DNA from: a virus
Taxonomy: Duplodnaviria; Heunggongvirae; Uroviricota; Caudoviricetes
DNA length: 30,652 nucleotides
Virus record (IMG/VR): IMGVR_UViG_3300045988_047713
Location: 1 to 30,652 of that record
Direction: 5' to 3' (one strand)
Every line of letters begins with the position of its first letter. The first letter of the stretch is position 1. A model generated the notes under the pieces. It was not told the DNA's origin. It saw only the letters and a program-made list of their open reading frames with translations, and ran no database searches. Below are positions 4,211 through 29,424 of this stretch, in pieces. A program made the translations under genes and the position numbers.

Positions 4211-6565
4211 ATGAAAGGGTTACTGAACCGTAAACAGTGGGTCATGTGGCGACTTGAGACAGTCGCCGATCGTCCAAAACCAACGAAAGTACCATACAGC
4301 CCGGTACACGGTTATAAAGCCAGTACCACTAACCCTAACGACTGGTCTGACTATCACACCGCGTTGGGTATGGCGCAAATGTACGGTATGTCTGGTGTTG
4401 GTTTCGTATTCACAGAAAACGACCCTTATTTCTTTATCGATGTTGATAACTGTCTGGTAGATCAGGCGACAGCTACGTGGTCACCTCTGGCGCATGAATT
4501 CGTAAACCGTTTCCCAAATGCTTACACTGAAGTAAGTCAGTCAGGAACAGGTTTACATATCATCTGTGCTTATACCAGCATACCGGAAGGTTTTAACAGT
4601 CTGAACGACCAGAAAACCGGGCTGGAAATGTACTGGCGTGATCGTTTCGTCGCGATGACGCTCACGGGTAATGGTGATGTTGATATTGATTATACCCAGG
4701 GTATTCATGATTCTATTGCCCGGTATGGTCGCATCCGTTCAGACCGTTCCGCACGCTGGACAACAGCACCCTGTGATGACTGGTCAGGCCCGGCAGACGA
4801 TGATGAACTGATTAAAATGGCGTTAAATTCGTCCAGTGCTGCTTCAGTATTTGGTAATAAAGCATCATTTGCGGATCTGTGGAATGCAAACGTTGAACGC
4901 CTGTCTGTGTCATATCCCAGCGACCAGGGAAAAGACTACAATGCATCTGCCGCTGATGCTGCCTTGTGCTCACACCTTGCGTTCTGGACCGGAAAAGATT
5001 GCGAACGTATTGAACGATTGTTTAACCGTTCCGGGCTGGTTCGTGGTAAATGGACAGATCGTCAGGATTACCGTGAAAACACAATTCTGGGCGCTGTGGA
5101 ACGTTGTGATACGGTTTATCGTAGTCAACCGACGCTGACACCAGAACTGATGAAAGCAGTCACACCAGCGCCTACCATCGTTCCTAATGGTGGAACACCT
5201 GCGTATATGAGTGTGAAACCCGGTGAAGGTGCATATGGTTCAAACCACACGGTTAACGCATCCACGTTCGTTAATAACTATTATCCGAACAACACATTAA
5301 TTTTCGTCCAGCAACAGCCGTACCGGTTTAATGGTCGTGTATGGGAACGTGTGAGTGAAGATGAACTGAAACATCAGATATCTATGGCAATGCTCGCCAG
5401 CGAACCAAAAGCTGACGTGATTAATGGTACGTACAAGGTATTGTCGTATTTATTCACACGGGCTGATCGTGAGCTTGGAACATGGCCCGGTGTTGATGTA
5501 TCACACTATATTGTTTGTCAGAACGGGATACTGGATGTACATACGGGTAAATGTGATGCACATAACCCGGATTTCTTTACGACCAGTATTTTACCATATA
5601 GCTATGATCCGTTTGCCCGTGCGCCAGCATTTGAACAGTTTCTTAATACAACTCTGGAAGGTGATCAGGAACGTATTGCACTGTTGCAAGAATGGCTTGG
5701 TTACATGCTTGTCAACTCGTATGACTATCAGAAAGCGATGCTGTTGATTGGTGCGCCACGTTCCGGTAAAGGTACGATCGGTCGTATTATTCAGGCACTG
5801 GTAGGTGACGAAGCATATGCAGGGATCACACTGGAGGGTTTAGCTAGTGATGCGGTACTTGAAACTGTGCTGGATAAATCTGTGCTGTTTATTGGTGATG
5901 CTCACAGTGTGTCCGGGCCTGATCGCAACCGAATTCTGGACCGTTTCAAATCTATTACAGGTTGTGATGCGATTCCGGTTAATCGTAAGTATAAAGGTGC
6001 ATGGAACGGTCGTTTACCGGGACGTATGACACTGGCTGCTAACAACATACCTGCATTTGCTGATGATTCAGGTGCAATGGCTAACCGTTTGCTGATCCTA
6101 CCATTCAACATTTCGTTCCTGGGTCGTGAAGATACCACTCTGGAAGCACGACTGATGAAAGAACTACCGGGGATCTGTAACTGGGCGATTGAAGGTTTGC
6201 AACGGTTACGTGCAAACGGACGGTTTACTGAACCAAAAGCAAGTCTGGAAGAACGTCAGGAAATTATGGATCAACAATCACCACTTAGAAGTTTTATCAG
6301 AGATTGTTGCGAATTGGTATCTGATGGTGAGGTGCACACTGAAGAACTATATGGTCGTTATCGTCTCTGGAAAACACAGGAAGGTGGTCCAGCAATGACT
6401 AAAACTGCATTTAGTCGGGCGTTTAAATCCACCCTTCGTGGTAAAGTGAAAAAAGACGTTGTTAATATAAATAACGTTCGACTAAACGGTTTCAGGGGTA
6501 TTCGTCTTCTCCCTTTTCAGTCAACAGCTAATGTAGTGCCTTTCCCACCTGCGAGTAACGGTTAG
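4211..6565 (+). CDS. DNA primase-helicase: PrimPol-type N-terminal domain fused to D5_N / P4-family SF3 helicase
   Basis: 784 aa; VHGYKASTTNPNDW...GVGFVF...FIDVDNC (bifunctional primase-polymerase motifs); Walker A LLIGAPRSGKGT; Walker B-like VLFIGDAHS. Confidence 0.8.
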   Translation: MKGLLNRKQWVMWRLETVADRPKPTKVPYSPVHGYKASTTNPNDWSDYHTALGMAQMYGMSGVGFVFTENDPYFFIDVDNCLVDQATATWSPLAHEFVNRFPNAYTEVSQSGTGLHIICAYTSIPEGFNSLNDQKTGLEMYWRDRFVAMTLTGNGDVDIDYTQGIHDSIARYGRIRSDRSARWTTAPCDDWSGPADDDELIKMALNSSSAASVFGNKASFADLWNANVERLSVSYPSDQGKDYNASAADAALCSHLAFWTGKDCERIERLFNRSGLVRGKWTDRQDYRENTILGAVERCDTVYRSQPTLTPELMKAVTPAPTIVPNGGTPAYMSVKPGEGAYGSNHTVNASTFVNNYYPNNTLIFVQQQPYRFNGRVWERVSEDELKHQISMAMLASEPKADVINGTYKVLSYLFTRADRELGTWPGVDVSHYIVCQNGILDVHTGKCDAHNPDFFTTSILPYSYDPFARAPAFEQFLNTTLEGDQERIALLQEWLGYMLVNSYDYQKAMLLIGAPRSGKGTIGRIIQALVGDEAYAGITLEGLASDAVLETVLDKSVLFIGDAHSVSGPDRNRILDRFKSITGCDAIPVNRKYKGAWNGRLPGRMTLAANNIPAFADDSGAMANRLLILPFNISFLGREDTTLEARLMKELPGICNWAIEGLQRLRANGRFTEPKASLEERQEIMDQQSPLRSFIRDCCELVSDGEVHTEELYGRYRLWKTQEGGPAMTKTAFSRAFKSTLRGKVKKDVVNINNVRLNGFRGIRLLPFQSTANVVPFPPASNG

Positions 6566-8599: not shown

Positions 8600-8887
8600 A
8601 TGACCATAAGACGTGTTGTGTGTGCGGCAAATAAATATGAACTTAACGATGGTTCAACTAAGATTTTCACTGGTATCCGACACTATTGTCCCGTTATGCG
8701 TCAGAATATAGAGTTCTGGAAATTATCCATCAAACGTTCTACAGAAGTACAAGGCTTTGTAGATCAGTATGGTGTTTTCATGGACCGTTTTGAAGCACTT
8801 CAGGTTGCAAAAGATGCCGGGCAACTGAATATCGCCAGACCAAAAACATCACCTGAAGATCGGTTATTTAGCGAGGACTTATACTAA
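8600..8887 (+). CDS. hypothetical protein (95 aa)
   Basis: GAGGTG RBS 7 nt upstream of the ATG; last gene before a strong terminator. Confidence 0.55.
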   Translation: MTIRRVVCAANKYELNDGSTKIFTGIRHYCPVMRQNIEFWKLSIKRSTEVQGFVDQYGVFMDRFEALQVAKDAGQLNIARPKTSPEDRLFSEDLY

Positions 8888-8893
8888 CAAAAA

Positions 8894-8922
8894 AGCGGGG
8901 CTAACTACCCCGCTATCTTTAT
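8894..8922. terminator. bidirectional rho-independent terminator
   Basis: Hairpin AGCGGGG-CTAACTA-CCCCGCT (8894-8914), A-run upstream and T-rich run downstream, so it works on both strands; lies between convergent genes. Confidence 0.75.
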
Positions 8923-9737
8923 TGACCCATCATATCTTTATACATCATCAAAACAACATCATCCGGCATATTGTCTACATCACAATGTGGGTTATGCGAT
9001 AACGCATACAGTCTGATTTTCTCCTTCAAATCGCTGACATCGACTACAGGTGGTTCCACTCGTGCTACAGGTGGTTCCACTCGTGCTACAGGTGGTTCCA
9101 CTCGTGCTACAGGTGGTTCCACTCGTGCTACAGGTGGTTCCACTCGTGCTACAGGTGGTTCCACTCGTGCTACAGGTGGTTCACAAACCATCACGTTAAA
9201 CGGTGTACCGGTGCCTTCGTATTTTTCAAGCAAATCGACCATTACGTTTACACATTCCGGGATCCAACCCCGGCGCAAACCATTCTGAATCCAACTGTCA
9301 GTAATTGTGTGTTCGTTTAAATTTCTGCGTAACACGTATCTGGTACATTCAAAATTACCGCACATCGCCTCAAACCGTGTCCACACGTCGTGACCGTGAA
9401 CAGCTTCCAGGATCTGTGAATCAACATATCTGACACGTTGCCAGTAGTTATTAGCAAAACGCCTGTGTGGTAATTTCTGACGCAGTTCGGTAACCGGTAT
9501 TGTGCGTTTAAGAACAATGTTTTCGTCAGAATGTTGTACTGACAAGGGTGACAGTGTGAAGTCAGTAATCTCTTCAAGAATAATACTGATCGTTTCAATT
9601 TTAGGATGAAATCTACCGCTCAACCATTGGTTGTAACGACCAACAGTTACCTTAACACCTCGACGATTAAGGTATTCAACAGCATTTTGCACCCCGCCTT
9701 TTAAATCTATCAATTCGTCTAAAAGGTTCTTTTTCAT
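8919..9737 (-). CDS. hypothetical protein with N-terminal HTH-like segment and 7 tandem EPPVARV heptads
   Basis: 272 aa from ATG 9737 (AAGGTG RBS 7 nt upstream; the track start at 9773 is 12 codons further); internal perfect 21-bp nucleotide repeats; sits directly beside the operator array. Confidence 0.6.
   Translation of the reverse strand: MKKNLLDELIDLKGGVQNAVEYLNRRGVKVTVGRYNQWLSGRFHPKIETISIILEEITDFTLSPLSVQHSDENIVLKRTIPVTELRQKLPHRRFANNYWQRVRYVDSQILEAVHGHDVWTRFEAMCGNFECTRYVLRRNLNEHTITDSWIQNGLRRGWIPECVNVMVDLLEKYEGTGTPFNVMVCEPPVARVEPPVARVEPPVARVEPPVARVEPPVARVEPPVARVEPPVVDVSDLKEKIRLYALSHNPHCDVDNMPDDVVLMMYKDMMGQ
9044..9190. repeat. perfect tandem repeat, 21-bp unit CTACAGGTGGTTCCACTCGTG, about 6.7 copies, in-frame within a CDS
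   Basis: Read directly: identical units from 9044 to about 9184; encodes the EPPVARV heptads on the minus strand. Confidence 0.9.
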
Positions 9738-9780
9738 TATCACACCTTCTTTATTTAACCACGGATAAATCATAACTCGC

Positions 9781-9955
9781 GTTAGCAGCTAGTGCAAGAT
9801 GTGCTTTATATGTTAGTGCACTTACACCTAATACATATTGTGCTTTAACGGTTAGTGCAAGATGCACGTTGTGCATTAGCTGTTAGTGCACGTTGTGTAT
9901 CTATGTTGGTACAGTTAGTGCACGTTGTGTATTATATAGTGCACGTTATGCATTA
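9781..9955. promoter_or_regulatory. array of 5-7 palindromic operator/iteron-like sites (core TAGTGCACGTTGTGCATTA)
   Basis: Copies near 9790, 9812, 9861, 9885, 9917, 9938; each contains an inverted repeat TGCAC-N3-GTGCA; spacing about 25-35 bp. Confidence 0.6.
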
Positions 9956-9967
9956 AAGTTATACTTA

Positions 9968-10085
9968 ACATAGATTGCATCATGTTTATTTTTTAACCAA
10001 CCTTTCTCTATCTTATTCTTTTTATTACCTTTTTATAGATAACATAGAAAACATAGATAAATAGAAGAAGTAGTATAGAAAGATA
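9968..10085. repeat. AT-rich intergenic element, copy A of a ~105-110-bp duplicated sequence
   Basis: CATGTTTATTTTTTAACCAACCTTTCTCTATCTTATTCTTTTTATTACCTTTTTATAGA...ACATAGATAAATAGAAG is about 90 percent identical to 29201-29310. Confidence 0.8.
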
Positions 10086-10225
10086 GAGATAGTACATATA
10101 GTGTATTAGCTGTAAATAGAGCTAAAATAAAAGTCTGGGAGATACCTATTGTAATCTATGTTTTTATGCAAGTCTTTGAAATCATTGTGATTATTGGCTA
10201 CGTATTTATGTATGTGGTCGAAAAT

Positions 10226-10243
10226 TAGTGCATGTTGTGCATT
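10226..10243. promoter_or_regulatory. isolated operator copy (TTAGTGCATGTTGTGCATTA)
   Basis: Same palindromic core as the 9781-9955 array, about 100 bp upstream of TerS. Confidence 0.45.
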
Positions 10244-10348
10244 AACTGTAAACTTAATACTAACATTGTATTAGCTGTAAAACAGGGCGTGTAGACAACC
10301 CGTGGGTATCTGTGGGAAACTAATTTAAAATTTATGGGAGACAAATTT

Positions 10349-10984
10349 ATGAAAATTTCAGACCGGGCTAAAAGAGCTGCTCTGGAGTTAACAACCGATC
10401 AACTACGCTTCGCTAACCTGTGGTTAGATCGTGTCAATAACGGCTTCAGCAACGCTCAGTGCGTCTTACACGCTTATCCGGGGCATAAAGACCCTGACGC
10501 AGCTAAAGTCACCGCACACCGCCTCCTGTCGAATAGGAAGGTGTTGAACTATCTGGACGCGATGGGAAGTCATGCGCTTGAGTCTGTCGGGGAATCGTTA
10601 ACGAGTCGTGTCGAGTGGTGGAAACGAGCGGCAAGCACGGCTGAAGAATTACTGGAACCGTATTGTCAGCGCGTAATCGTCCCTGGTGAAGACGACACAG
10701 AAGCGAAACACCTGTGGGTGAACAGTACCGACGATATCCCCAGCCATCTTCAACAGTACGTAGTTTGCTACAAGCGTTACATGCTGGGCGGATACATTCT
10801 GGTGACGCGTGAATTGTTCGATCCGAAAACTCGTGCAAAAGCGTCTGAACAACTGGATAAAATCACCGGGAACAGTATCGACCGTGTGGAATTGTCTGGT
10901 GTGGTTGGTAACGTGGTTCAGAGTGTTCCTGAAGGTGCAACTATCGACGATATCGCGCAACTGTATCAGAAGGCGCTTAAATAG
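10349..10984 (+). CDS. terminase small subunit (TerS)
   Basis: 211 aa from ATG 10349 (GGGAGA RBS); N-terminus LTTDQLRFANLWLDRVNNGFSNAQCVLHAYPG...AHRLLSNRKVLNYL fits the small-terminase HTH pattern (LT.KQ.RF...A...AGYS...LL.N.KV). Confidence 0.65.
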   Translation: MKISDRAKRAALELTTDQLRFANLWLDRVNNGFSNAQCVLHAYPGHKDPDAAKVTAHRLLSNRKVLNYLDAMGSHALESVGESLTSRVEWWKRAASTAEELLEPYCQRVIVPGEDDTEAKHLWVNSTDDIPSHLQQYVVCYKRYMLGGYILVTRELFDPKTRAKASEQLDKITGNSIDRVELSGVVGNVVQSVPEGATIDDIAQLYQKALK

Positions 10985-10993
10985 GCGGTTGTT

Positions 10994-11028
10994 CCGGCTT
11001 AAATCGTGCCGGAAACCGTTTGCGTTTT
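10994..11028 (+). terminator. weak terminator-like hairpin downstream of TerS
   Basis: CCGGC-N9-GCCGG stem followed by a T-rich stretch (GCGTTTTCG); T-run is separated from the stem. Confidence 0.25.
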
Positions 11029-11098
11029 CGATAAACAAGGTTAGGTGGTGCAAGTGTACTGTTGAAGGTGTTAAGTTCGTCAGAGAGCGTTTTAGAAA

Positions 11099-11116
11099 GC
11101 CCGGAACTAACCGGGC
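11099..11116 (-). terminator. rho-independent terminator for the minus-strand rdgC operon
   Basis: Hairpin GCCCGG-AACTAA-CCGGGC; on the minus strand followed by TTTCTAAAA. Confidence 0.45.
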
Positions 11117-11178
11117 GTATGTTCATTATTCGTGATTATTACTACGTATCATCTGGTAGTTTTCAGCATCACTACGTT

Positions 11179-12093
11179 TCATCGTTTAGCCTCCCCACCC
11201 AAAGCAGTGATAAGTTGTTTGATCAGTGCCTGAAGTTCACCTGTCATCAGTACAAAATCAGCGTCAAATCGTGCCAGACTGTCTTCAAGGTCAATATCGT
11301 CGTTCTGGCACATCAGTTCGTCGCAGAATTTCACACGGTTTAACGTCATGCTGTCAGTTAGCGTAAACGTTACCCGCTGCTGCCAGTCCATCGCCAGCTT
11401 TGTAACGACTTTCCCGGCTTCAATATGCGTGGCTATTTCGTCACTGGTTAAATCCTGTTTTTTAACACGTGCAACACCGCCGTCAGTCAGGATCGCTTTC
11501 AGTTCCGCAGAATCACCCATTGTAAAACCTGTTGGCGCGTTTCCTGAACGTACCCACTCCGTTGTTGTCAGTTCAACAGGGTTTTCAGTTGTCAGTGGGA
11601 CTACAGGCAGACTACCCAGGGATTTACGCAACAGTGCTAATGCGTCTTCAGCCCGTTTAGCACTGGACGCATCAACCACGATCAACCTGTTAGTGATATC
11701 AATCCACAACTGTGTACGACTGTTTTTAACGAACGCTCGTGGTAACAGACTGTGTAACACTTCATCTTTCAGCGCGTCTTTCTCTGTTTTCTTCAGCTTA
11801 CGCGCCTGTTCAGCTTCCAGTTTGGCGATTCGCGCGTTCAGATGTTGTTTAATGACCGGACCCGGAATAATCTTTTCCTGTTTCTGGATGGTCAGCAGAT
11901 ATTGCCCGTTAGCCTGGTGAACCAGTGTATGATGTTGTTCAGTTGCCGGAACCCAACCAGTACGCGTCATATCCTGTGAACCGCACGGGGTAAATTGAAA
12001 CGCACACAGGCTGTCTTCCAGTGTTGGTAACTGGACCATTAATGCCATTGGGTTAGTCAGACGATAAATGATTGCGTTTTTAAAGAAGTTCAT
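11179..12093 (-). CDS. rdgC: recombination-associated protein RdgC homolog
   Basis: 304 aa; N-terminus [12 protein letters not shown] and overall length match bacterial RdgC (E. coli RdgC is about 303 aa, N-terminus MLWFKNLMVYRL as recalled); similarity judged from memory, not by search. Confidence 0.75.
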
Positions 12094-12290
12094 AGTTGTT
12101 TTCCTGTTATAACGTCAGTTAATGGTTTAAACGAATCATCGGTGATTGTTGAATTTAAATATTCGCAGACAGCTTTAACAATCCCAGCATGTGTCATTGG
12201 TTCATCTTTATATGACGACTCAAAACTAAACCCCGTGAATAGAATCTCACCACCATTATTAGTTACTGTTCCAAATCGTGTAATTTTCAT
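12090..12290 (-). CDS. hypothetical protein (66 aa)
   Basis: ORF with ATGA overlap to rdgC; same operon. Confidence 0.5.
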
Positions 12291-12292
12291 GA

Positions 12293-12487
12293 CTAGTCGA
12301 TATCCTGTGGATTGACTTTAACGGATGTTTGAATTGCTACAGAAGGTGAATAACCAATACAGGTAAACTCCACACATTCAGCTTCAACAATCAAACCTGT
12401 TTTAACAGCAGAGTTGATAGCCGTGTTTAATTCTGCTGTCAGACGTTTAATTTTATCCTGATGTTCTAATGCTTCAGACAGTTTCAT
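12293..12487 (-). CDS. hypothetical protein (64 aa)
   Basis: ATG at 12487 (MKLSEALEH...); the track start at 12496 is a TTG. Confidence 0.5.
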   Translation of the reverse strand: MKLSEALEHQDKIKRLTAELNTAINSAVKTGLIVEAECVEFTCIGYSPSVAIQTSVKVNPQDID

Positions 12488-12633
12488 GATAACCAATACC
12501 TCACTAAATTATTAGTTAGATTATCCAGCGCCAGAAAGAAATTGACAATGAATATGAGTCCTAACATTCCCACTAACCACGGTAATAGTTTAACGACCCA
12601 TAATGGTATTTTTGAAATCAGCCAGAAAATCAT
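12484..12633 (-). CDS. small membrane protein (49 aa)
   Basis: ATG 12633, hydrophobic MIFWLISKIPLWVVKLLPWLVGMLGLIFIV; ATGA coupling on both sides. Not in ORF track. Confidence 0.35.
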   Translation of the reverse strand: MIFWLISKIPLWVVKLLPWLVGMLGLIFIVNFFLALDNLTNNLVRYWLS

Positions 12634-12785
12634 TTCCTGTTCCTTCTTTTCTTCGCCTCGCGTCGGGCTTTTGCAATACCTGTTTTACGATGTGGTTGTT
12701 TACGGTCAGTAATAAGTCGTTGTGGTGGAATACCCCACAATGTGTTAGTGGAACTTAACAGTTTAATCGCGTAATCAAGAATCAT
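12630..12785 (-). CDS. small basic protein (51 aa)
   Basis: ATG 12785 with GGTGA RBS; C-terminal KARREAKKRRNRK. Not in ORF track. Confidence 0.3.
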   Translation of the reverse strand: MILDYAIKLLSSTNTLWGIPPQRLITDRKQPHRKTGIAKARREAKKRRNRK

Positions 12786-12892
12786 ACGTTCACCACTTTT
12801 AAATCAGGTGTCAGGCTACGATGGTCATGATGACCGTTCATGGTAAATGAGAAAGTGTAATCGCACTGTTCACCGTTGAACGTGAAGGGGAT

Positions 12893-13048
12893 TTAAAACC
12901 CTGTATCGTCAGTGATGCGAACTTTAACCGGGTATTCAGCTTGCGGATCGACCGCTACAACAGTACCGAACGGTTGAGATTTGCGACGTGCGAGAATTTC
13001 TAACAGTCGTGGACTGGTGATTTCTACGTGTTGACCAGTTTTAAACAT
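12893..13048 (-). CDS. small hypothetical protein (51 aa)
   Basis: Internal ATG 13048 with GGAG RBS; the track start at 13075 would lie at the predicted transcription start of promoter copy 4. Confidence 0.4.
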   Translation of the reverse strand: MFKTGQHVEITSPRLLEILARRKSQPFGTVVAVDPQAEYPVKVRITDDTGF

Positions 13049-13080
13049 GGTGATAACTCCAGTTGTTTTACACAAATTGA

Positions 13081-13124
13081 AGTCTATCTGATGATGTGTA
13101 AACCGTCAAGAATTATTTTAAATT
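13081..13124 (-). promoter_or_regulatory. conserved sigma70-type promoter, copy 4 (minus strand)
   Basis: -35 TTGACG (13109-13104), 17-bp spacer, -10 TAGACT (13086-13081), UP element TAAAATAATTC; drives the rdgC operon. Confidence 0.55.
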
Positions 13125-13299
13125 GTCCGTCACTGTCTGCAGCATAGCAAATGCCGTGACTGTATATTGTCGCAGTTCGTGTAATGCGTTGATAGTCTGA
13201 GCATTGGTTACGAACACGCAGGTCATACCCGGACTGTATAATCAGCCAGGTTGCAATGATGGCGAGTAATTTTAAAACGTATCTGAACATGTTCCACAC
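13084..13299 (-). CDS. small hydrophobic protein (71 aa), possible membrane/secreted
   Basis: AGGAG RBS upstream of ATG 13299; N-terminal hydrophobic LKLLAIIATWLIIQS. Confidence 0.5.
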   Translation of the reverse strand: MWNMFRYVLKLLAIIATWLIIQSGYDLRVRNQCSDYQRITRTATIYSHGICYAADSDGQFKIILDGLHIIR

Positions 13300-13351
13300 T
13301 CCTGTTTGATAGTTTCAGGGTAGTGTGGAACTGGTGAAGATGGTATAGGAT

Positions 13352-13750
13352 TTACGATAATTTAACAGTTAATCCGGCGTTGGTCAGAACGTTAGCGACA
13401 TCACGCACACCAGCTTCATATCCGTCTATAGGTGTTGCGGGTGATTTAACACAAATGCCAGCATGCTTTGGTAATTCAATTACCAACTGTTCCCGACTGG
13501 CTTTCCACATGTCCCACGCGCGATTCAAACGATCGCCTTCTTCCACGGTGTACTCGTCATCTTTCCTTAATTTTTCTAAGACGTTTTTTGGTGTTCCGTA
13601 TTTGTCTGAATAACACGCTTCAAACTGTTCACGACTCTTATCCACTTTTTCAACCCTCCACCCATATTTAGCACGATTCATAGCGGTCCGTTCATCATTC
13701 GTGGTGAACAGTACGCGCCCGGATTTATGACAAATGTTCCAAGTCGTCAT
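13352..13750 (-). CDS. hypothetical protein (132 aa)
   Basis: ORF track; no recognised motifs. Confidence 0.5.
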   Translation of the reverse strand: MTTWNICHKSGRVLFTTNDERTAMNRAKYGWRVEKVDKSREQFEACYSDKYGTPKNVLEKLRKDDEYTVEEGDRLNRAWDMWKASREQLVIELPKHAGICVKSPATPIDGYEAGVRDVANVLTNAGLTVKLS

Positions 13751-13802
13751 TTCGCTAATACACCAATAATGAAAATTAGCATGTAGAATAAAACATTACG
13801 GG

Positions 13803-13961
13803 TCATAATTCATAAACCTTAAAACTACCGCCTGAATAACGATGTTTATTACACAACTTACAACGGTGTTCCTGAGTGGCGTAATTACGTTCATCTCCGT
13901 GGATAGTACGATACAAATACCATTCGTGTTTGCAGAATAATCGTTTGAGAAATATCTTCAT
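13803..13961 (-). CDS. small Cys/His-containing protein (52 aa), zinc-finger-like
   Basis: ATG 13961 with AAGGTG RBS; CKHEW...HRCKLCNKH. Not in ORF track. Confidence 0.35.
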   Translation of the reverse strand: MKIFLKRLFCKHEWYLYRTIHGDERNYATQEHRCKLCNKHRYSGGSFKVYEL

Positions 13962-13968
13962 AGTTCAA

Positions 13969-14286
13969 TCACCTTTTTAACACATCACGACAATCACACA
14001 ATAGACGAACATATGTTAATTTACGTTCATCTAACAACGCCGCCATGTTGTTAGCCTCATTTGCGAGGAATTCTAGCGCGTCTTTTTCAGAACAAAAACA
14101 GTGATAAGAGTTTTTGAGTAATACACGACCTTTATCGCTGTAACGACATTTAACACGCCAACCTTTTGGTGTTTTATTTATAATCTCATATTGTTCAATA
14201 TAATGATGGACATCAAGAGCTTTATATTTATCACTACAAGTAGGTTTGCGGATAAACCACATGTTTTGGTTATCAGATACATTCAT
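13969..14286 (-). CDS. hypothetical protein (105 aa)
   Basis: Internal ATG at 14286 chosen because it overlaps the upstream stop; the track ORF extends to 14343. Confidence 0.45.
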   Translation of the reverse strand: MNVSDNQNMWFIRKPTCSDKYKALDVHHYIEQYEIINKTPKGWRVKCRYSDKGRVLLKNSYHCFCSEKDALEFLANEANNMAALLDERKLTYVRLLCDCRDVLKR

Positions 14287-14489
14287 TATTTGACTCCATG
14301 ACCTGGTGCAAAACAAACTGTATTGTTTTCTTTGAAAACCCAACCAGCTTTTTTAGCCTGTTTCAGACAATCACGAAAGTTTTTACCACCGAACGAAGTA
14401 ACCTCAGTTGCGAAAAATGGACCTTTAGGTTTTTTACATACGGCGCAATCACAGTAAAGGTCCATTGAATAACCACTAACAACCATCAA
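14286..14489 (-). CDS. small Cys-rich protein (67 aa)
   Basis: CDCAVCKK ... VCFAPGH; ATGA overlap with the upstream gene. Confidence 0.5.
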   Translation of the reverse strand: MMVVSGYSMDLYCDCAVCKKPKGPFFATEVTSFGGKNFRDCLKQAKKAGWVFKENNTVCFAPGHGVK

Positions 14490-14704
14490 TAACCCCTTTT
14501 AATCTTCCCCAATGCTTGTTGCACAATCTGCCAGGACGATAACATGAATAATTGCGCGTATTGTCCCAGTGCTAAATTTCGTGGTTTATCCTGGTAAGCG
14601 TAAATGGTCGCAATGTCATCAGCTTCCAGACGGATCCGCCACGGTGTCAGAGTTGGTTTATCACCCATGTTCGACGCGCTCCAGTAGTTCACGAATGTTT
14701 TCAA
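14486..14704 (-). CDS. hypothetical protein (72 aa; possible internal start at 14668)
   Basis: ORF track; overlaps the next ORF by 44 nt unless the internal Met is used. Confidence 0.45.
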   Translation of the reverse strand: MKTFVNYWSASNMGDKPTLTPWRIRLEADDIATIYAYQDKPRNLALGQYAQLFMLSSWQIVQQALGKIKRGY

Positions 14705-14984
14705 TTACACGTTGTTTTGTCTGAGTAGTGACACATACACCATCAGTGCGCCCAAAAGTTTCTAACACAGTTTGAAGTGCTTGATACATTTCAGGACTGT
14801 TTAACATTAATGACAGGTTACCCCGGAGTTCCTGGAGTTTTCCTTGTTCTTCGTTTGGTAAGTAACAAGGGTCTTCCATTTTAATAATCACTTGCGCGAT
14901 TGCCCCGTGGTCTGGTGATGAAATACTCACATGATTTTCAACCCATCCTTCATCTTTAAACCACGGTAATTGTGAACATTTCAT
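14661..14984 (-). CDS. hypothetical protein (107 aa)
   Basis: First gene downstream of promoter copy 5 on the minus strand. Confidence 0.5.
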   Translation of the reverse strand: MKCSQLPWFKDEGWVENHVSISSPDHGAIAQVIIKMEDPCYLPNEEQGKLQELRGNLSLMLNSPEMYQALQTVLETFGRTDGVCVTTQTKQRVIENIRELLERVEHG

Positions 14985-15214
14985 ACCTGTAACCCTCTTG
15001 TTTTTTGTTTAGTGACAAGATATCTCTTCAACCCGTCGCAACTAATTTCACAATCCCCGCAGGAACCACCATCCAACCAGATGATGCATAGTGTGTGATT
15101 TCGTGGGGTGAGTTACGCTTTATACTCACCGTAGCGCCTGACAATCAGCGGTATCTTCAGCCGGACAATTCCGGGTTACTACATACTTGGTCAGGTATCT
15201 TGTCTATGACAACA

Positions 15215-15258
15215 ACTATACAGATACATGAGCAATCTGTCAAGAATTATTTTAAACC
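15215..15258 (-). promoter_or_regulatory. conserved sigma70-type promoter, copy 5 (minus strand)
   Basis: -35 TTGACA (15243-15238), 17-bp spacer, -10 TATAGT (15220-15215), UP element; about 220-nt leader to ATG 14984. Confidence 0.55.
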
Positions 15259-15319
15259 TCTGTTACCACCTGTCACCCGTGGTAAACTGTACAGAACAGT
15301 TACAAACGGACCGATAATC

Positions 15320-17083
15320 ATGAATAAGTTTACTGGAAATATTCATAATTACCCGCGTTGGCGGGATGCCTACGCAAATGACGAACGTATCTGGCGAAAA
15401 GGTCAGCCACGACCGGATTATAAACAGTGTTACATTGACCGCATTAACCTGTTAAATCGTATGCGCACGGATCGGGCAATTGTCCCGGTGCTGAAAAAGT
15501 ATTACGAAACAAACCCGGTAGCGTTTATCCTCGACTGGGCGTTTACTTACGACCCGCGTAACGTCGGTACTGAGTACACGCCTAACATGCCTTTCTGCCT
15601 TTTCGAACGTCAGATCGACATGGTTCAGTTTGTTTATGAAGCGCTTGAAGACAAAGAGAAAGGACTTTGGGAAAAATCGCGAGACTATGGCGCGACCTGG
15701 GTAGCCTGTGGTTTGTCCGTATGGGCGTGGCTGTATCGTCCTGGTTCTTCAGTTGGCTGGGGATCACGTAAAGAACAGCTTGTTGATAAACTGGGCGACC
15801 CGGATAGTATTTTTGAAAAGATTCGCCAGATTATCCGCGCATTACCACCGGAATTACGCCCGGTCGGTCTGCGTGAAAAAGACCATCTGGTTTACATGAA
15901 ATGTATCAACCCAGAAAACGGTGCAACAATTACTGGTGAAGCTGGCGATAACATCGGTCGTGGTGGTCGTAAATCTGTCTATTTTCTCGACGAGGCAGCA
16001 CACGTAGATCGTCCTGAACTGATCGAAGCGTCGTTGTCAGCTAACACCAACGTTCGTATCGACATCAGTTCAGTTAACGGTGTTGGTAACGTTTTTTATC
16101 GTAATCGTAAAGCTGGTCTGGAATGGGAACCAGGTAAGAAATTACCCCGTGGTAAATTGCGTGTCATGGTTCTGGACTGGCGTGATCACCCGGCTAAAGA
16201 TGACGAATGGTATAAGCGAGAAAAACAATCGTTCGCTGAAAAAGGTTTACAGCATATTTTCGCACAGGAAGTTGACCGCGATTATGCCGCTGCTGTTCAG
16301 GGCGTGTTGATTAAAGCTGAATGGGTACGCGCTGCTTTTGACGCGTTCCGTGACACAGAATGGCGCAAAGCTAACGGACTACTTACACCAACAGGTCAGC
16401 GTATCGCCGGACAGGATGCCGCAGACGGTGGTGAAGACGCAAGCGCACTGGTAATTGCTCACGGTGTATTCCTGACACATCTGCAACTTGACCACAGGGG
16501 CGCTGAACTGGCTGCACCAGGAATGTTGACGATGGCTAATATGCTGGGTGTTGATGAATACTGGTACGAAGTTAACGGTGTTGGTACAGGCGTTAAAGTA
16601 GCGGCAAATGACCGGAAAGATACTCTACGCTTCCGTGTGCGCCCGTGGTTACCGAACGGAAAAGTGGTGGATCCAGGTGGTGATATTATCGGTGGTACGA
16701 AACCTGGCGATAAAGACCGTAAATCAAACAAAGATTATTTCTCAAATTATAAAGCACAGGCATCGTGGGCGTTACGCCTGCGATGTCAGCGAATTTATAA
16801 ATGGTATGTGGAAGGTCAACCACAGGATCCAGACGAAATTATTCTGATTGATCCATCACTGGAAAATGCACAACGGTTAGAGGCTGAGTTAAGTCAGCCA
16901 ACATATACCAGTAACGGTGCCGGGAAGATTGTGATCGACAAAAAACCAAATGGAAGTAAGTCGCCAAACTTTTTCGATGCTGCGGTTATTGCACTATCAC
17001 CAAAACGCACTGAATTTGTCGAAGAACCATTTACTGGTGGTGTGAATCCTGTTGGTACGCCTGATTACGGTGACATTTTTTAA
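15320..17083 (+). CDS. terminase large subunit (TerL)
   Basis: 587 aa from ATG 15320; ERQIDMV...GLWEKSRDYGATWVACGLSVWAWLY (Q-motif plus deviant Walker A), Walker B VYFLDEAAH, nuclease-domain acidic cluster GQDAADGGEDASALVIAHG. The in-frame extension to 15095 is rejected because it would encode across promoter copy 5. Confidence 0.8.
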   Translation: MNKFTGNIHNYPRWRDAYANDERIWRKGQPRPDYKQCYIDRINLLNRMRTDRAIVPVLKKYYETNPVAFILDWAFTYDPRNVGTEYTPNMPFCLFERQIDMVQFVYEALEDKEKGLWEKSRDYGATWVACGLSVWAWLYRPGSSVGWGSRKEQLVDKLGDPDSIFEKIRQIIRALPPELRPVGLREKDHLVYMKCINPENGATITGEAGDNIGRGGRKSVYFLDEAAHVDRPELIEASLSANTNVRIDISSVNGVGNVFYRNRKAGLEWEPGKKLPRGKLRVMVLDWRDHPAKDDEWYKREKQSFAEKGLQHIFAQEVDRDYAAAVQGVLIKAEWVRAAFDAFRDTEWRKANGLLTPTGQRIAGQDAADGGEDASALVIAHGVFLTHLQLDHRGAELAAPGMLTMANMLGVDEYWYEVNGVGTGVKVAANDRKDTLRFRVRPWLPNGKVVDPGGDIIGGTKPGDKDRKSNKDYFSNYKAQASWALRLRCQRIYKWYVEGQPQDPDEIILIDPSLENAQRLEAELSQPTYTSNGAGKIVIDKKPNGSKSPNFFDAAVIALSPKRTEFVEEPFTGGVNPVGTPDYGDIF

Positions 17084-18369: not shown

Positions 18370-18873
18370 ATGCAGAATATTAACGCAGGTATGGGTGTCA
18401 CCCAGTTTAACGGTATGAAACCGCGAAGCACTATTAACATTGGTGGTGTGGAGTGGTCGTTACGTCGGGATGCCACTGACTCAACAACAATGTTTCCTCA
18501 TCCGAAGGTAAGCTGGCTTAACGCTGGTTGTGAACCGATGGGTGATGGTCGTTTTCATTACTGTTGGATTTTGGGTGTGATTCCCCCGACACCGGGGACA
18601 ATCGAACGACCTGTTAATGTGATGTATGTTGGTTTCCATCAATTTAAAATTAATATCGCACCTAATTCAATTAGTCAGGCTGATTTAGACAGGATGCATG
18701 TTTATGTCAGCGATACTTCTCATTTTGCTGGTGAATTTGTCAGTAAGTTTTTAGGTACAGAACCTGAACCTGTGGAAACCCGTGAAAATATCAGTCCGTG
18801 GCCCCCGATGAATGATCCTCGTGAGCAACCAAAAGTAGCAAAAAATAAGGTAAACGAAGATGACGAAGAATGA
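18370..18873 (+). CDS. hypothetical protein (167 aa)
   Basis: AGGAA RBS; acidic C-terminus. Confidence 0.5.
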   Translation: MQNINAGMGVTQFNGMKPRSTINIGGVEWSLRRDATDSTTMFPHPKVSWLNAGCEPMGDGRFHYCWILGVIPPTPGTIERPVNVMYVGFHQFKINIAPNSISQADLDRMHVYVSDTSHFAGEFVSKFLGTEPEPVETRENISPWPPMNDPREQPKVAKNKVNEDDEE

Positions 18874-29055: not shown

Positions 29056-29099
29056 AAGATATACCACAGTTTGCAATCCGTCAAGAATTATTTTAAAGA
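29056..29099 (-). promoter_or_regulatory. conserved sigma70-type promoter, copy 10 (minus strand)
   Basis: -35 TTGACG (29084-29079), 17-bp spacer, -10 TATCTT (29061-29056), UP element. Confidence 0.55.
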
Positions 29100-29101
29100 T
29101 A

Positions 29102-29188
29102 CAGCTAATACAGAACGTGTACTAACTGTACATGGTTTTACATAGGTTTCATGATTTTGAGTTGCAGCTAATACACGTTCTGTATTAG
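29102..29188. promoter_or_regulatory. two palindromic operator-like sites (CTAATACA-N5-TGTATTAG family)
   Basis: 29102-29128 (CAGCTAATACAGAACGTGTACTAA) and 29167-29188 (GCTAATACACGTTCTGTATTAG, perfect 8-bp arms); architecture related to the TAGTGCACGTTGTGCATTA sites at 9781-9955. Confidence 0.5.
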
Positions 29189-29200
29189 TAGATCATAAAT

Positions 29201-29310
29201 TCATAGATTTCGTCATGTTTATTTTTTAACCAACCCTTCTCTATCTTATTCTTTTTATTACCTTTTTATAGAAAACATAATAAACATAGATAAATAGAAG
29301 AGTAGTATAA
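29201..29310. repeat. AT-rich intergenic element, copy B of the duplicated sequence
   Basis: About 90 percent identical to 9968-10085 with two small indels. Confidence 0.8.
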
Positions 29311-29382
29311 GTAGTATAAGTTGCTGTAAGTAGGAGAGGTTTAAAAGGTATAGGGGGGTCGCATACTTCCCATGAATCTATA

Positions 29383-29424
29383 CGTAAAATAATTCTTGAC
29401 GGATTACACCGACACAACTACCCT
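29383..29424 (+). promoter_or_regulatory. conserved sigma70-type promoter, copy 11 (plus strand)
   Basis: UP element, -35 TTGACG (29396-29401), 17-bp spacer, -10 TACCCT (29419-29424). Confidence 0.5.

Follow-up and report, generated by a model that had tools for sequence, protein, structure and literature searches.

In the lambdoid phages lambda, phi80 and 82, the replication origin combines type-specific 19-bp dyad iterons, which go with a likewise type-specific N-terminal half of the O protein, with a conserved AT-rich region, which goes with a conserved C-terminal half of O, and in O a flexible linker lies between the DNA-binding and the partner-binding parts. The Bacillus phage SPP1, a virulent siphovirus of the pac (packaging site) type, has two distant G38P-bound origins, oriL and oriR, of which one is close to the gene of the initiator and the second lies among late genes, and in the origins of SaPI/PICI elements iterons flank an AT-rich region, the specificity determinant being part of the Rep helicase. 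Repeats bound by TerS surround the cleavage zone at pacL-pacC-pacR of SPP1 and at pac of P1, sites for integration host factor (IHF) are also found at lambda cos and P1 pac, and the phi29 protein p4 acts at the A2c/A2b-A3 region. Here we describe an element in IMG/VR virus record IMGVR_UViG_3300045988_047713, the whole analysed stretch of which (positions 1 to 30,652; 30,652 nucleotides) is called the window below. The element consists of an array of 19-bp repeats and a very AT-rich core, and it lies between terS and a minus-strand gene for a 272-aa protein. By analogy with known systems, the repeats and core at this locus (site A) may form an iteron-type replication origin with an autoregulated initiator gene, a reading to which we assign a probability of roughly 40%.

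The window belongs to a Sashavirus, a 9NA-like virulent siphovirus. Over positions 8800-11000 it shares 94% identity with KarinMuster_Bas82, a phage of Escherichia, and with the Salmonella phages Sasha, Sergei and Solent, and the match of 9NA itself to this segment is confined to terS, at 80% identity. Phages of this kind (Nonanavirus, Sashavirus and their Klebsiella relatives) are in use for biocontrol and are present in the BASEL collection, and to our knowledge no origin, initiator or regulatory circuit has been described for them; those papers on Sashaviruses and the Klebsiella relatives that were consulted do not describe termini, origin or repeats.

Repeats and AT-rich core at two loci

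The repeat, TAGTGCAC-GTT-GTGCATTA, is present at site A in six strong and three weak copies, all within 9790-10281. When up to three mismatches were allowed, the pattern TAGTGCACGTTGTGCATTA matched six times in 9790-10244, always on the plus strand, and once more at 29106 on the minus strand; the chance expectation for this 19-mer pattern is 0.02 per window, and none of 100 shuffled sequences reached seven matches. The weaker copies were recovered by a weight-matrix scan (9829 and 10090, at 14-15 bits) or as members of repeat family D3 (10255). Centre-to-centre spacing in the left array is 21-39 bp. The array described in the sequence-only reading, which had been made from the letters of the window without database searches, is therefore real, except that the dyad TGCAC-GTT-GTGCA is an imperfect palindrome and the copies are oriented, each with the flank RCTGT(A/T)A on its 3' side.

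To the right of the array the DNA is very AT-rich over about 135-175 bp, rather than the 250 bp first proposed, and the G+C fraction is 0.265 over 9900-10199. The short ATAGA repeats that had been noticed in this tract hold up well (eight copies in 9956-10130 against 0.55 expected from composition, with 0 of 2000 shuffles; four of them recur at an 8-9-bp period), and the operator copy that had been placed beyond the tract was found at 10226 as a strong site, with a weak one at 10255. Among all 100-bp segments of the window, the one with the lowest duplex stability falls in the core (z 4.3), in agreement with the anatomy of iterons plus unwinding element that had been suggested. Since the neighbouring gene starts at the ATG at 9737, the intergenic region spans 9738-10348, and it is organised, together with terS, as follows:

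9790-9955, plus strand: left array, all in one orientation, with sites at 9790-9808, 9814-9821 (half-site), 9829-9847 (weak), 9853/9860-9878 (overlapping pair), 9884-9902, 9916-9934 and 9937-9955.
9956-10089, no strand assigned: conserved AT-rich core, T-rich in its first half and A-rich in its second, where YATAGATAR recurs every 9 bp.
10090-10116, plus strand: weak or degenerate candidate binding site with conserved flank, TAGTACATATAGTGTATTA-GCTGTAAA, forming the right border of the AT core.
10117-10225, no strand assigned: spacer, nearly invariant among close relatives, in which the minus strand reads TTTCAAnnnnTTG, resembling an IHF site, around 10170-10182.
10226-10281, plus strand: right-hand pair of sites, 10226-10244 (strong) and 10255-10273 (weak), both with the flank.
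10290-10348, plus strand: leader of terS, in which the motif ACCCGTGGGTATCTGTGGGAAACTA at 10298-10322 is conserved and TAGACA-N18-GAAACT may be a weak promoter; the Shine-Dalgarno (SD) sequence is GGGAG.
10349-10984, plus strand: terS, 211 aa, phrog_51, 81-93% identical across all repeat classes.

Sites equivalent to the one at 10090-10116 are found to the right of the tract in 9NA, in KP13-27 (a Klebsiella phage) and in contig L036, and the spacer could house pac or serve other nucleoprotein functions.

The unit of repeats and AT tract occurs twice per genome, at site A and, 19 kb away, at site B (29100-29330), and the two cores are 94% identical over 100 nt (9969-10068 against 29202-29301). 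Within the window and the 98% of the Bas82 genome that was covered, repeats scoring 18 bits or more are restricted to these two loci, and strong sites are likewise confined to two loci per genome in 9NA, KP13-27 and Sergei. Site B is placed between two divergent copies of a promoter that is dispersed over the genome and is described further below; its parts are the following:

29056-29095, minus strand: leftward sigma-70 promoter of the standard type (AAAATAATTCTTGACG…TATCTT).
29106-29187: predicted binding-site variants in inverted arrangement, TAGTACACGTTCTGTATTA at 29106-29124 (minus) and TAATACACGTTCTGTATTA at 29169-29187 (plus).
29202-29330, no strand assigned: second copy of the AT-rich core, ranking next after that of site A in instability (z 4.1); a degenerate site carrying the flank GCTGTAAG comes after it.
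29385-29424, plus strand: rightward promoter of the standard type, driving the head-gene block.

The same two-locus layout was found in 9NA, Bas82, Sergei and KP13-27. From one site to the other, and across phages of Salmonella, E. coli and Klebsiella, the sequence of the AT tract is conserved, with a T-rich half, YATAGATAR repeats and then a TAAAAG…AATCTATGAT block; close relatives share about 97-98% identity over the tract, and it is the operator centres that have taken up most substitutions. In each of the five genomes tested, the lowest and second lowest stabilities of any 100-bp segment are those of the two tracts (z 3.6-4.8), with these values for the tracts and for the segment ranked next:

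Window: tracts z 4.3 and 4.1; next 2.85.
9NA: tracts z 4.0 and 3.6; next 3.3.
Bas82: tracts z 4.3 and 4.1; next 3.65.
KP13-27: tracts z 4.7 and 4.3; next 3.2.
Sergei: tracts z 4.8 and 4.15; next 3.8.

No copy of the element was found in 5,426 complete E. coli genomes or in 72,556 plasmids, and nothing in these collections therefore points to its capture by satellites or defence elements. A scan of viral contigs with the 16-mer ATAGATAAATAGAAGA returned mostly unrelated AT-rich contigs. At most, the AT tract could fold into a weak imperfect hairpin (z -2.3), and no Rfam family or tRNA was found. An RNA gene or a peptide gene was considered at this locus and rejected, as all frames of the tract contain stops, the small open reading frames of the spacer are not conserved between 9NA and the window phage, and the Rfam and tRNA searches were negative.

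The adjacent protein and the repeat classes

The gene facing terS across site A encodes the candidate binding protein, and the features that belong to it are these:

8894-8914, minus strand: hairpin and T-run resembling an intrinsic terminator, just downstream of the gene; a terminator is annotated at the equivalent position in Sergei.
8919-9737, minus strand: candidate binding-protein gene, 272 aa, phrog_25538 (an orphan family, function unknown), start at ATG 9737 by alignment.
9769-9797, minus strand: putative sigma-70 promoter of this gene, with a -35 of TTGCAC (reverse complement of 9792-9797), a 17-nt spacer and a -10 of TATGAT (reverse complement of 9769-9774).

Because of the terminator-like hairpin the gene is taken to be a monocistronic unit. 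Its putative promoter agrees with the consensus at 8 of 12 positions, which is below the threshold of our scan, and both hexamers are invariant in the alignment of close relatives. The putative -35 sits inside the first repeat, and in 9NA and KP13-27 the first repeat overlaps instead the 5' untranslated region (UTR) and ribosome-binding site (RBS) of the protein gene, so that autoregulation is likely in all classes.

The protein begins with a variable helix-turn-helix (HTH) region (residues ~1-60). A second, HTH-like domain (~75-185) is conserved, as is the C-terminal tail, and between these two stands a (PPVARVE)n linker. The N-terminal 60 residues gave a confident model of a four-helix bundle, whose sole compact structural matches, which were not significant, are HTH domains of the XRE/Cro type; the fold neighbours of the protein are generic HTH domains. 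The full-length AlphaFold model is poor outside the N-terminal domain, and the central domain was modelled successfully on its own. A perfect 21-bp tandem repeat (9044-9182, 6.6 copies) encodes the linker, which varies in copy number among close relatives and is absent in the 9NA and Klebsiella types. The family is small: 5.8 billion sequences contained 10 clusters of it and 1.84 billion representatives gave 13 hits, and searches with PADLOC, PDB profiles, a word index and exhaustive profiles returned nothing beyond it. In the homologues from Klebsiella phages (299-308 aa; that of KP13-27, 1798-2724 in L048, and protein P0011) the conserved central domain is tandemly duplicated, and in some 9NA-type relatives (L038, and L039 alike) the protein gene stands in the middle of a three-gene unit, flanked by unannotated genes for 88 aa and 91 aa (2238-2504 and 3220-3495 in L038).

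The repeats fall into four classes among the relatives, and at site A the class of the repeat matches the N-terminal HTH region of the adjacent protein in five of five lineages. Between classes this region is 29-42% identical, and the central domain 47-91%. In 9NA, where gp84 (41% identical) faces terS at site A, the AT tract lies at 52,850-~150 and site B is the gp36/gp37 junction, the repeat reads TAACAC-GTT-GTGTTA plus nAC-rAAACTA, and nine of the ten genome-wide matches to this pattern lie at the two loci; metagenomic relatives with proteins 38-40% identical have the 9NA-type repeat. KP13-27, with a protein 35% identical, has a fourth type, CTTACCA-AAC-TGGTAAG plus CYGWAAC, of which site A has five copies and site B two, and which does not occur elsewhere together with the flank. 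In BDX09P1 and contig L040 the central domain of the protein is 91% identical and its N-terminal 65 residues are 42% identical, and the left array alone is altered, to TAATACTAT-C-ATAGTATTA. Judging from their sequences, these two are natural recombinants, in which the HTH and the left array were swapped together; BDX09P1 retains sites resembling class 1 both at site B and in the right-hand part of site A. In Sergei the protein and site A belong to class 1, but the repeats of site B (18755-18850 of the record; 16255-16350 in L051) are class-4-like (Klebsiella-type), which indicates mosaic exchange of the site-B region upstream of the head genes, independent of the protein.

Taken across lineages, this covariation strongly supports the repeats as predicted binding sites of the adjacent 272-aa protein, as the sequence-only reading had proposed for its HTH-like product. 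Each repeat unit consists of a variable dyad and a conserved flank, the protein of a variable HTH and a conserved HTH-like domain, and the bipartite repeat would thus be mirrored, on the modelled folds, by a two-HTH protein. TerS, in turn, remains 81-93% identical, with a nearly invariant N-terminal region, while the repeats change class, which makes it very unlikely that the 19-bp repeats are TerS sites.

A candidate replication origin

If the element is an origin, site A (9790-10281) would be the main one, beside its initiator gene, and site B (29106-29330) a second, weaker copy. The protein would be made early from its own sigma-70-like promoter, and its dimers would recognise the dyads with the variable N-terminal HTH and contact the conserved flank (CTGTAAA / CTGAAAC) with the second, conserved HTH-like domain. 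Copies bound on both sides of the tract would deform and melt the least stable DNA of the genome, with help from divergent transcription and possibly from IHF, and the conserved C-terminal tail, tethered by the linker, would then recruit the primase-helicase of the phage (4211-6565), while occupation of the site overlapping the -35 of the gene would provide autoregulation. The claim concerns a likeness to known iteron systems in the way of working, and not membership of a known initiator family; among the known families considered (O, Rep, DnaA, G38P/DnaD-like), none was found to include the 272-aa protein.

Several observations weigh against an origin. The protein showed no homology to known initiators in Pfam, NCBIfam, PHROGs annotation, PDB sequences or a fold search. 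The GC skew, calculated for 9NA both cumulatively and per block, follows the coding strand, with values of +0.05 to +0.17 in all blocks, and is therefore uninformative for replication, giving no signal of it. The tract is conserved beyond mere AT-richness, and a conserved protein such as TerS or RNA polymerase could equally be what reads it. In two of five lineages (Sergei and BDX09P1) the site-B repeats are mismatched to the resident protein, so binding specific to the variable HTH cannot be essential at site B; either the conserved flank and domain suffice there, or the site works without the protein, or it is dispensable. The position just upstream of terS is also the classic location of pac. 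In TayeBlu, a relative at the family level, the single coverage terminus lies just upstream of terS/terL (PMC12772287).

The readings that follow and the origin are not mutually exclusive. As a tentative alternative, the protein may be a Cro/XRE-type regulator that acts early and controls its own gene, with its operators clustered in two divergent early/late promoter regions, where it would shut off the leftward early promoters and modulate rightward transcription of terS at site A and of the head-gene block at site B, the curved AT tract serving an architectural purpose, broadly as in the case of p4 of phi29. The predicted HTH folds would suit such a regulator, as would the overlap of the first repeat with the -35, or the 5'UTR and RBS, of the protein's own gene; both sites separate divergent units, with sigma-70 promoters of the early type leftward and late genes rightward, and 9NA-type phages have a site immediately upstream of the terS RBS. 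KP13-27, however, lacks a site near terS, the operators of site B overlap neither recognised promoter, and the distance from operator centre to the leftward -35 varies (~25 nt in 9NA and ~31 nt in the window). Six to nine oriented sites around the least stable DNA would also be an unusual operator layout, and the mismatched site-B repeats of Sergei and BDX09P1 would deregulate the head genes if regulation mattered there. Other late blocks (terL, portal and tail) have neither operators nor tract, and gp29 has no tract either; the late-gene control envisaged from the sequence alone is for this reason disfavoured, at least in the form of a general late promoter, and the tract was rejected in that role.

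A packaging site, the remaining proposal of the sequence-only reading, is doubtful for the element as a whole. TerS would read the AT tract with its ATAGATA repeats, or the spacer (10117-10348), and the terminase initiating the packaging series would cut there; the 19-bp repeats would be unrelated and serve autoregulation only, or the HTH protein would be a type-specific accessory factor. Packaging of 9NA is pac-directed and of the headful type, with one pac fragment reported (PMC4153490), and the terminus of TayeBlu agrees in position (PMC12772287). Like TerS, the tract and the spacer are conserved, the stretch from the tract to terS contains IHF-like sites, and several database records are linearised inside the tract, which may be a numbering convention only. 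That TerS stays so similar while the repeats change class argues against TerS as their reader, and leaves the AT tract and the right-hand part of the region as the candidate for pac. Even so, a pac would be expected at a single locus, and tract and flanking repeats are present twice per genome; the copy of the AT tract upstream of the head genes predicts a second packaging series, in contrast to the one fragment of 9NA.

In a further reading, the variable HTH and the array might together constitute a swappable self-recognition cassette, marking a phage's own DNA for a conserved machine acting at the AT core. In the sharpest form of this idea the two-HTH protein would be a type-specific adaptor, its conserved tail recruiting TerS and the terminase for packaging cuts across the AT tract, which we consider improbable; if true, it would represent a mode of pac recognition with specificity outside TerS. 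The protein of the cassette might also couple the initiation of replication and of packaging at one locus. Least probable of all is some other architectural role for the two AT-rich units, such as a hotspot for recombination or synapsis or a target of host nucleoid proteins, with repeats that merely autoregulate the adjacent gene: the invariance of the tract beside dyads that can be mismatched at site B, the 94% identity of the two copies within a genome (as gene conversion or pairing would produce) and the boundaries of the cassette swap, which fall in the tract and the conserved domain, are compatible with it, but no specific evidence favours it and it leaves unexplained why bipartite repeats of the same grammar flank the tract at both loci in every lineage.

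Genome context, promoters and other motifs

Upstream of site A, on the plus strand, lies the replication module, with a helicase, an exonuclease and a primase-polymerase/superfamily 3 (SF3) helicase fusion (4211-6565). The latter has no evident origin-binding domain, and no relative that we examined has an annotated replication initiator. Between terS and terL (about 15095-17083) there are some 4 kb of minus-strand genes (10985-15094), including an RdgC-like gene at 11179-12093, and across the whole window virion genes alternate with minus-strand blocks of small genes. The start of terS is most likely the ATG at 10349, with the SD GGGAG at 10336, rather than 10334. The Bas82 terS (Bas82_0095; 4284-5036 in L002) is annotated as 250 aa, with a start inside the intergenic repeats; the TerS alignment and the position of the SD favour 211 aa.

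The promoter dispersed over the genome is a highly conserved sigma-70 type, AAAATAATTCTTGAC-N17-TATAGT-like, whose 13-nt core AATAATTCTTGAC has 10 matches against 0.06 expected. Its full form, TAAAATAATTCTTGAC(G/A)GATTACA-N-TATAGT-like, comprises a UP-like tract, the -35, a 17-nt spacer and the -10, and copies are found at window positions 1226, 1289, 6587, 13105, 15239, 21257, 23480, 25249, 29080 and 29388 (also 17114). It heads most gene blocks, mainly the minus-strand blocks of small genes, and is conserved in 9NA. No copy lies inside site A, and in a generic sigma-70 scan promoter-like sites were no commoner at sites A and B than in shuffled sequences.

The 10-mer CCCGTGGTTA is over-represented, with two exact copies in the window (16642 and 24672) against 0.05 expected and four to five per genome in the relatives (2149, 11910, 16170 and 49534 of 9NA, and several in Bas82), some of them in coding regions. 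Near-copies occur at window positions 10298 and 29420. Related motifs, ACCCGTGG(G/T)TA, precede the first rightward gene by 30-50 nt at sites A and B. Elements resembling the IHF consensus (TTTCAAnnnnTTR) lie between the AT tract and terS in the window (10170-10182, minus strand), in 9NA (161-179 and 213-231), in L036, where the match to the consensus is perfect (TATCAATGATTTA), and in KP13-27; the 9NA element belongs to a 19-bp direct repeat, TGTTTTCAATAACTTAAAG, present in two copies. These IHF-like matches were made by eye, without statistics.

Comparison with known systems

Our analysis yields a candidate cis element with two copies per genome, its presumed cognate, an orphan protein with two HTH-like domains, four natural specificity classes and a natural cassette swap. 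If the element is an origin, the protein would represent a new initiator family that has converged on the logic of lambda O; a pac adaptor or an early/late switch would instead explain distinct self-recognition of 9NA-like phages during co-infection.

The lambdoid origins and O offer a close parallel, in that 19-bp dyad repeats stand beside an AT-rich region, repeats and the N-terminal part of the protein are type-specific, the remainder is conserved, and a linker is present. The window protein nevertheless has no sequence relationship or detectable fold relationship to O; its candidate origin is intergenic, beside the gene rather than inside it, and is found at two loci per genome; and the system has a second HTH-like domain and a bipartite repeat, in a virulent phage with its own primase-helicase. 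With oriL and oriR of SPP1 it shares two distant loci with repeats and an AT-rich region, again in a virulent pac-type siphovirus, although the proteins are not homologous, the box sequences and their layout differ, and here the second locus is mismatched in two of five lineages. SaPI/PICI origins are similar in having iterons on both sides of an AT-rich segment and matched specificities of protein and iteron that diversify among relatives, whereas here the specificity resides in a separate small protein with two HTH-like domains.

The pac sites of SPP1 and P1 resemble site A in lying on the 5' side of terS, in having repeats on both sides of a bendable AT-rich zone and in a possible IHF site, but the repeats of the window covary with the neighbouring protein and not with TerS, and the second copy is far from the terminase genes. 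A small HTH protein, dyad sites, a divergent early/late region with AT-rich bent DNA and probable autoregulation recall p4 of phi29 and the Cro/XRE operators; compared with these, the sites of the window are many more and are oriented, they flank the tract instead of overlapping the promoters of site B, and they leave the other late operons uncovered.
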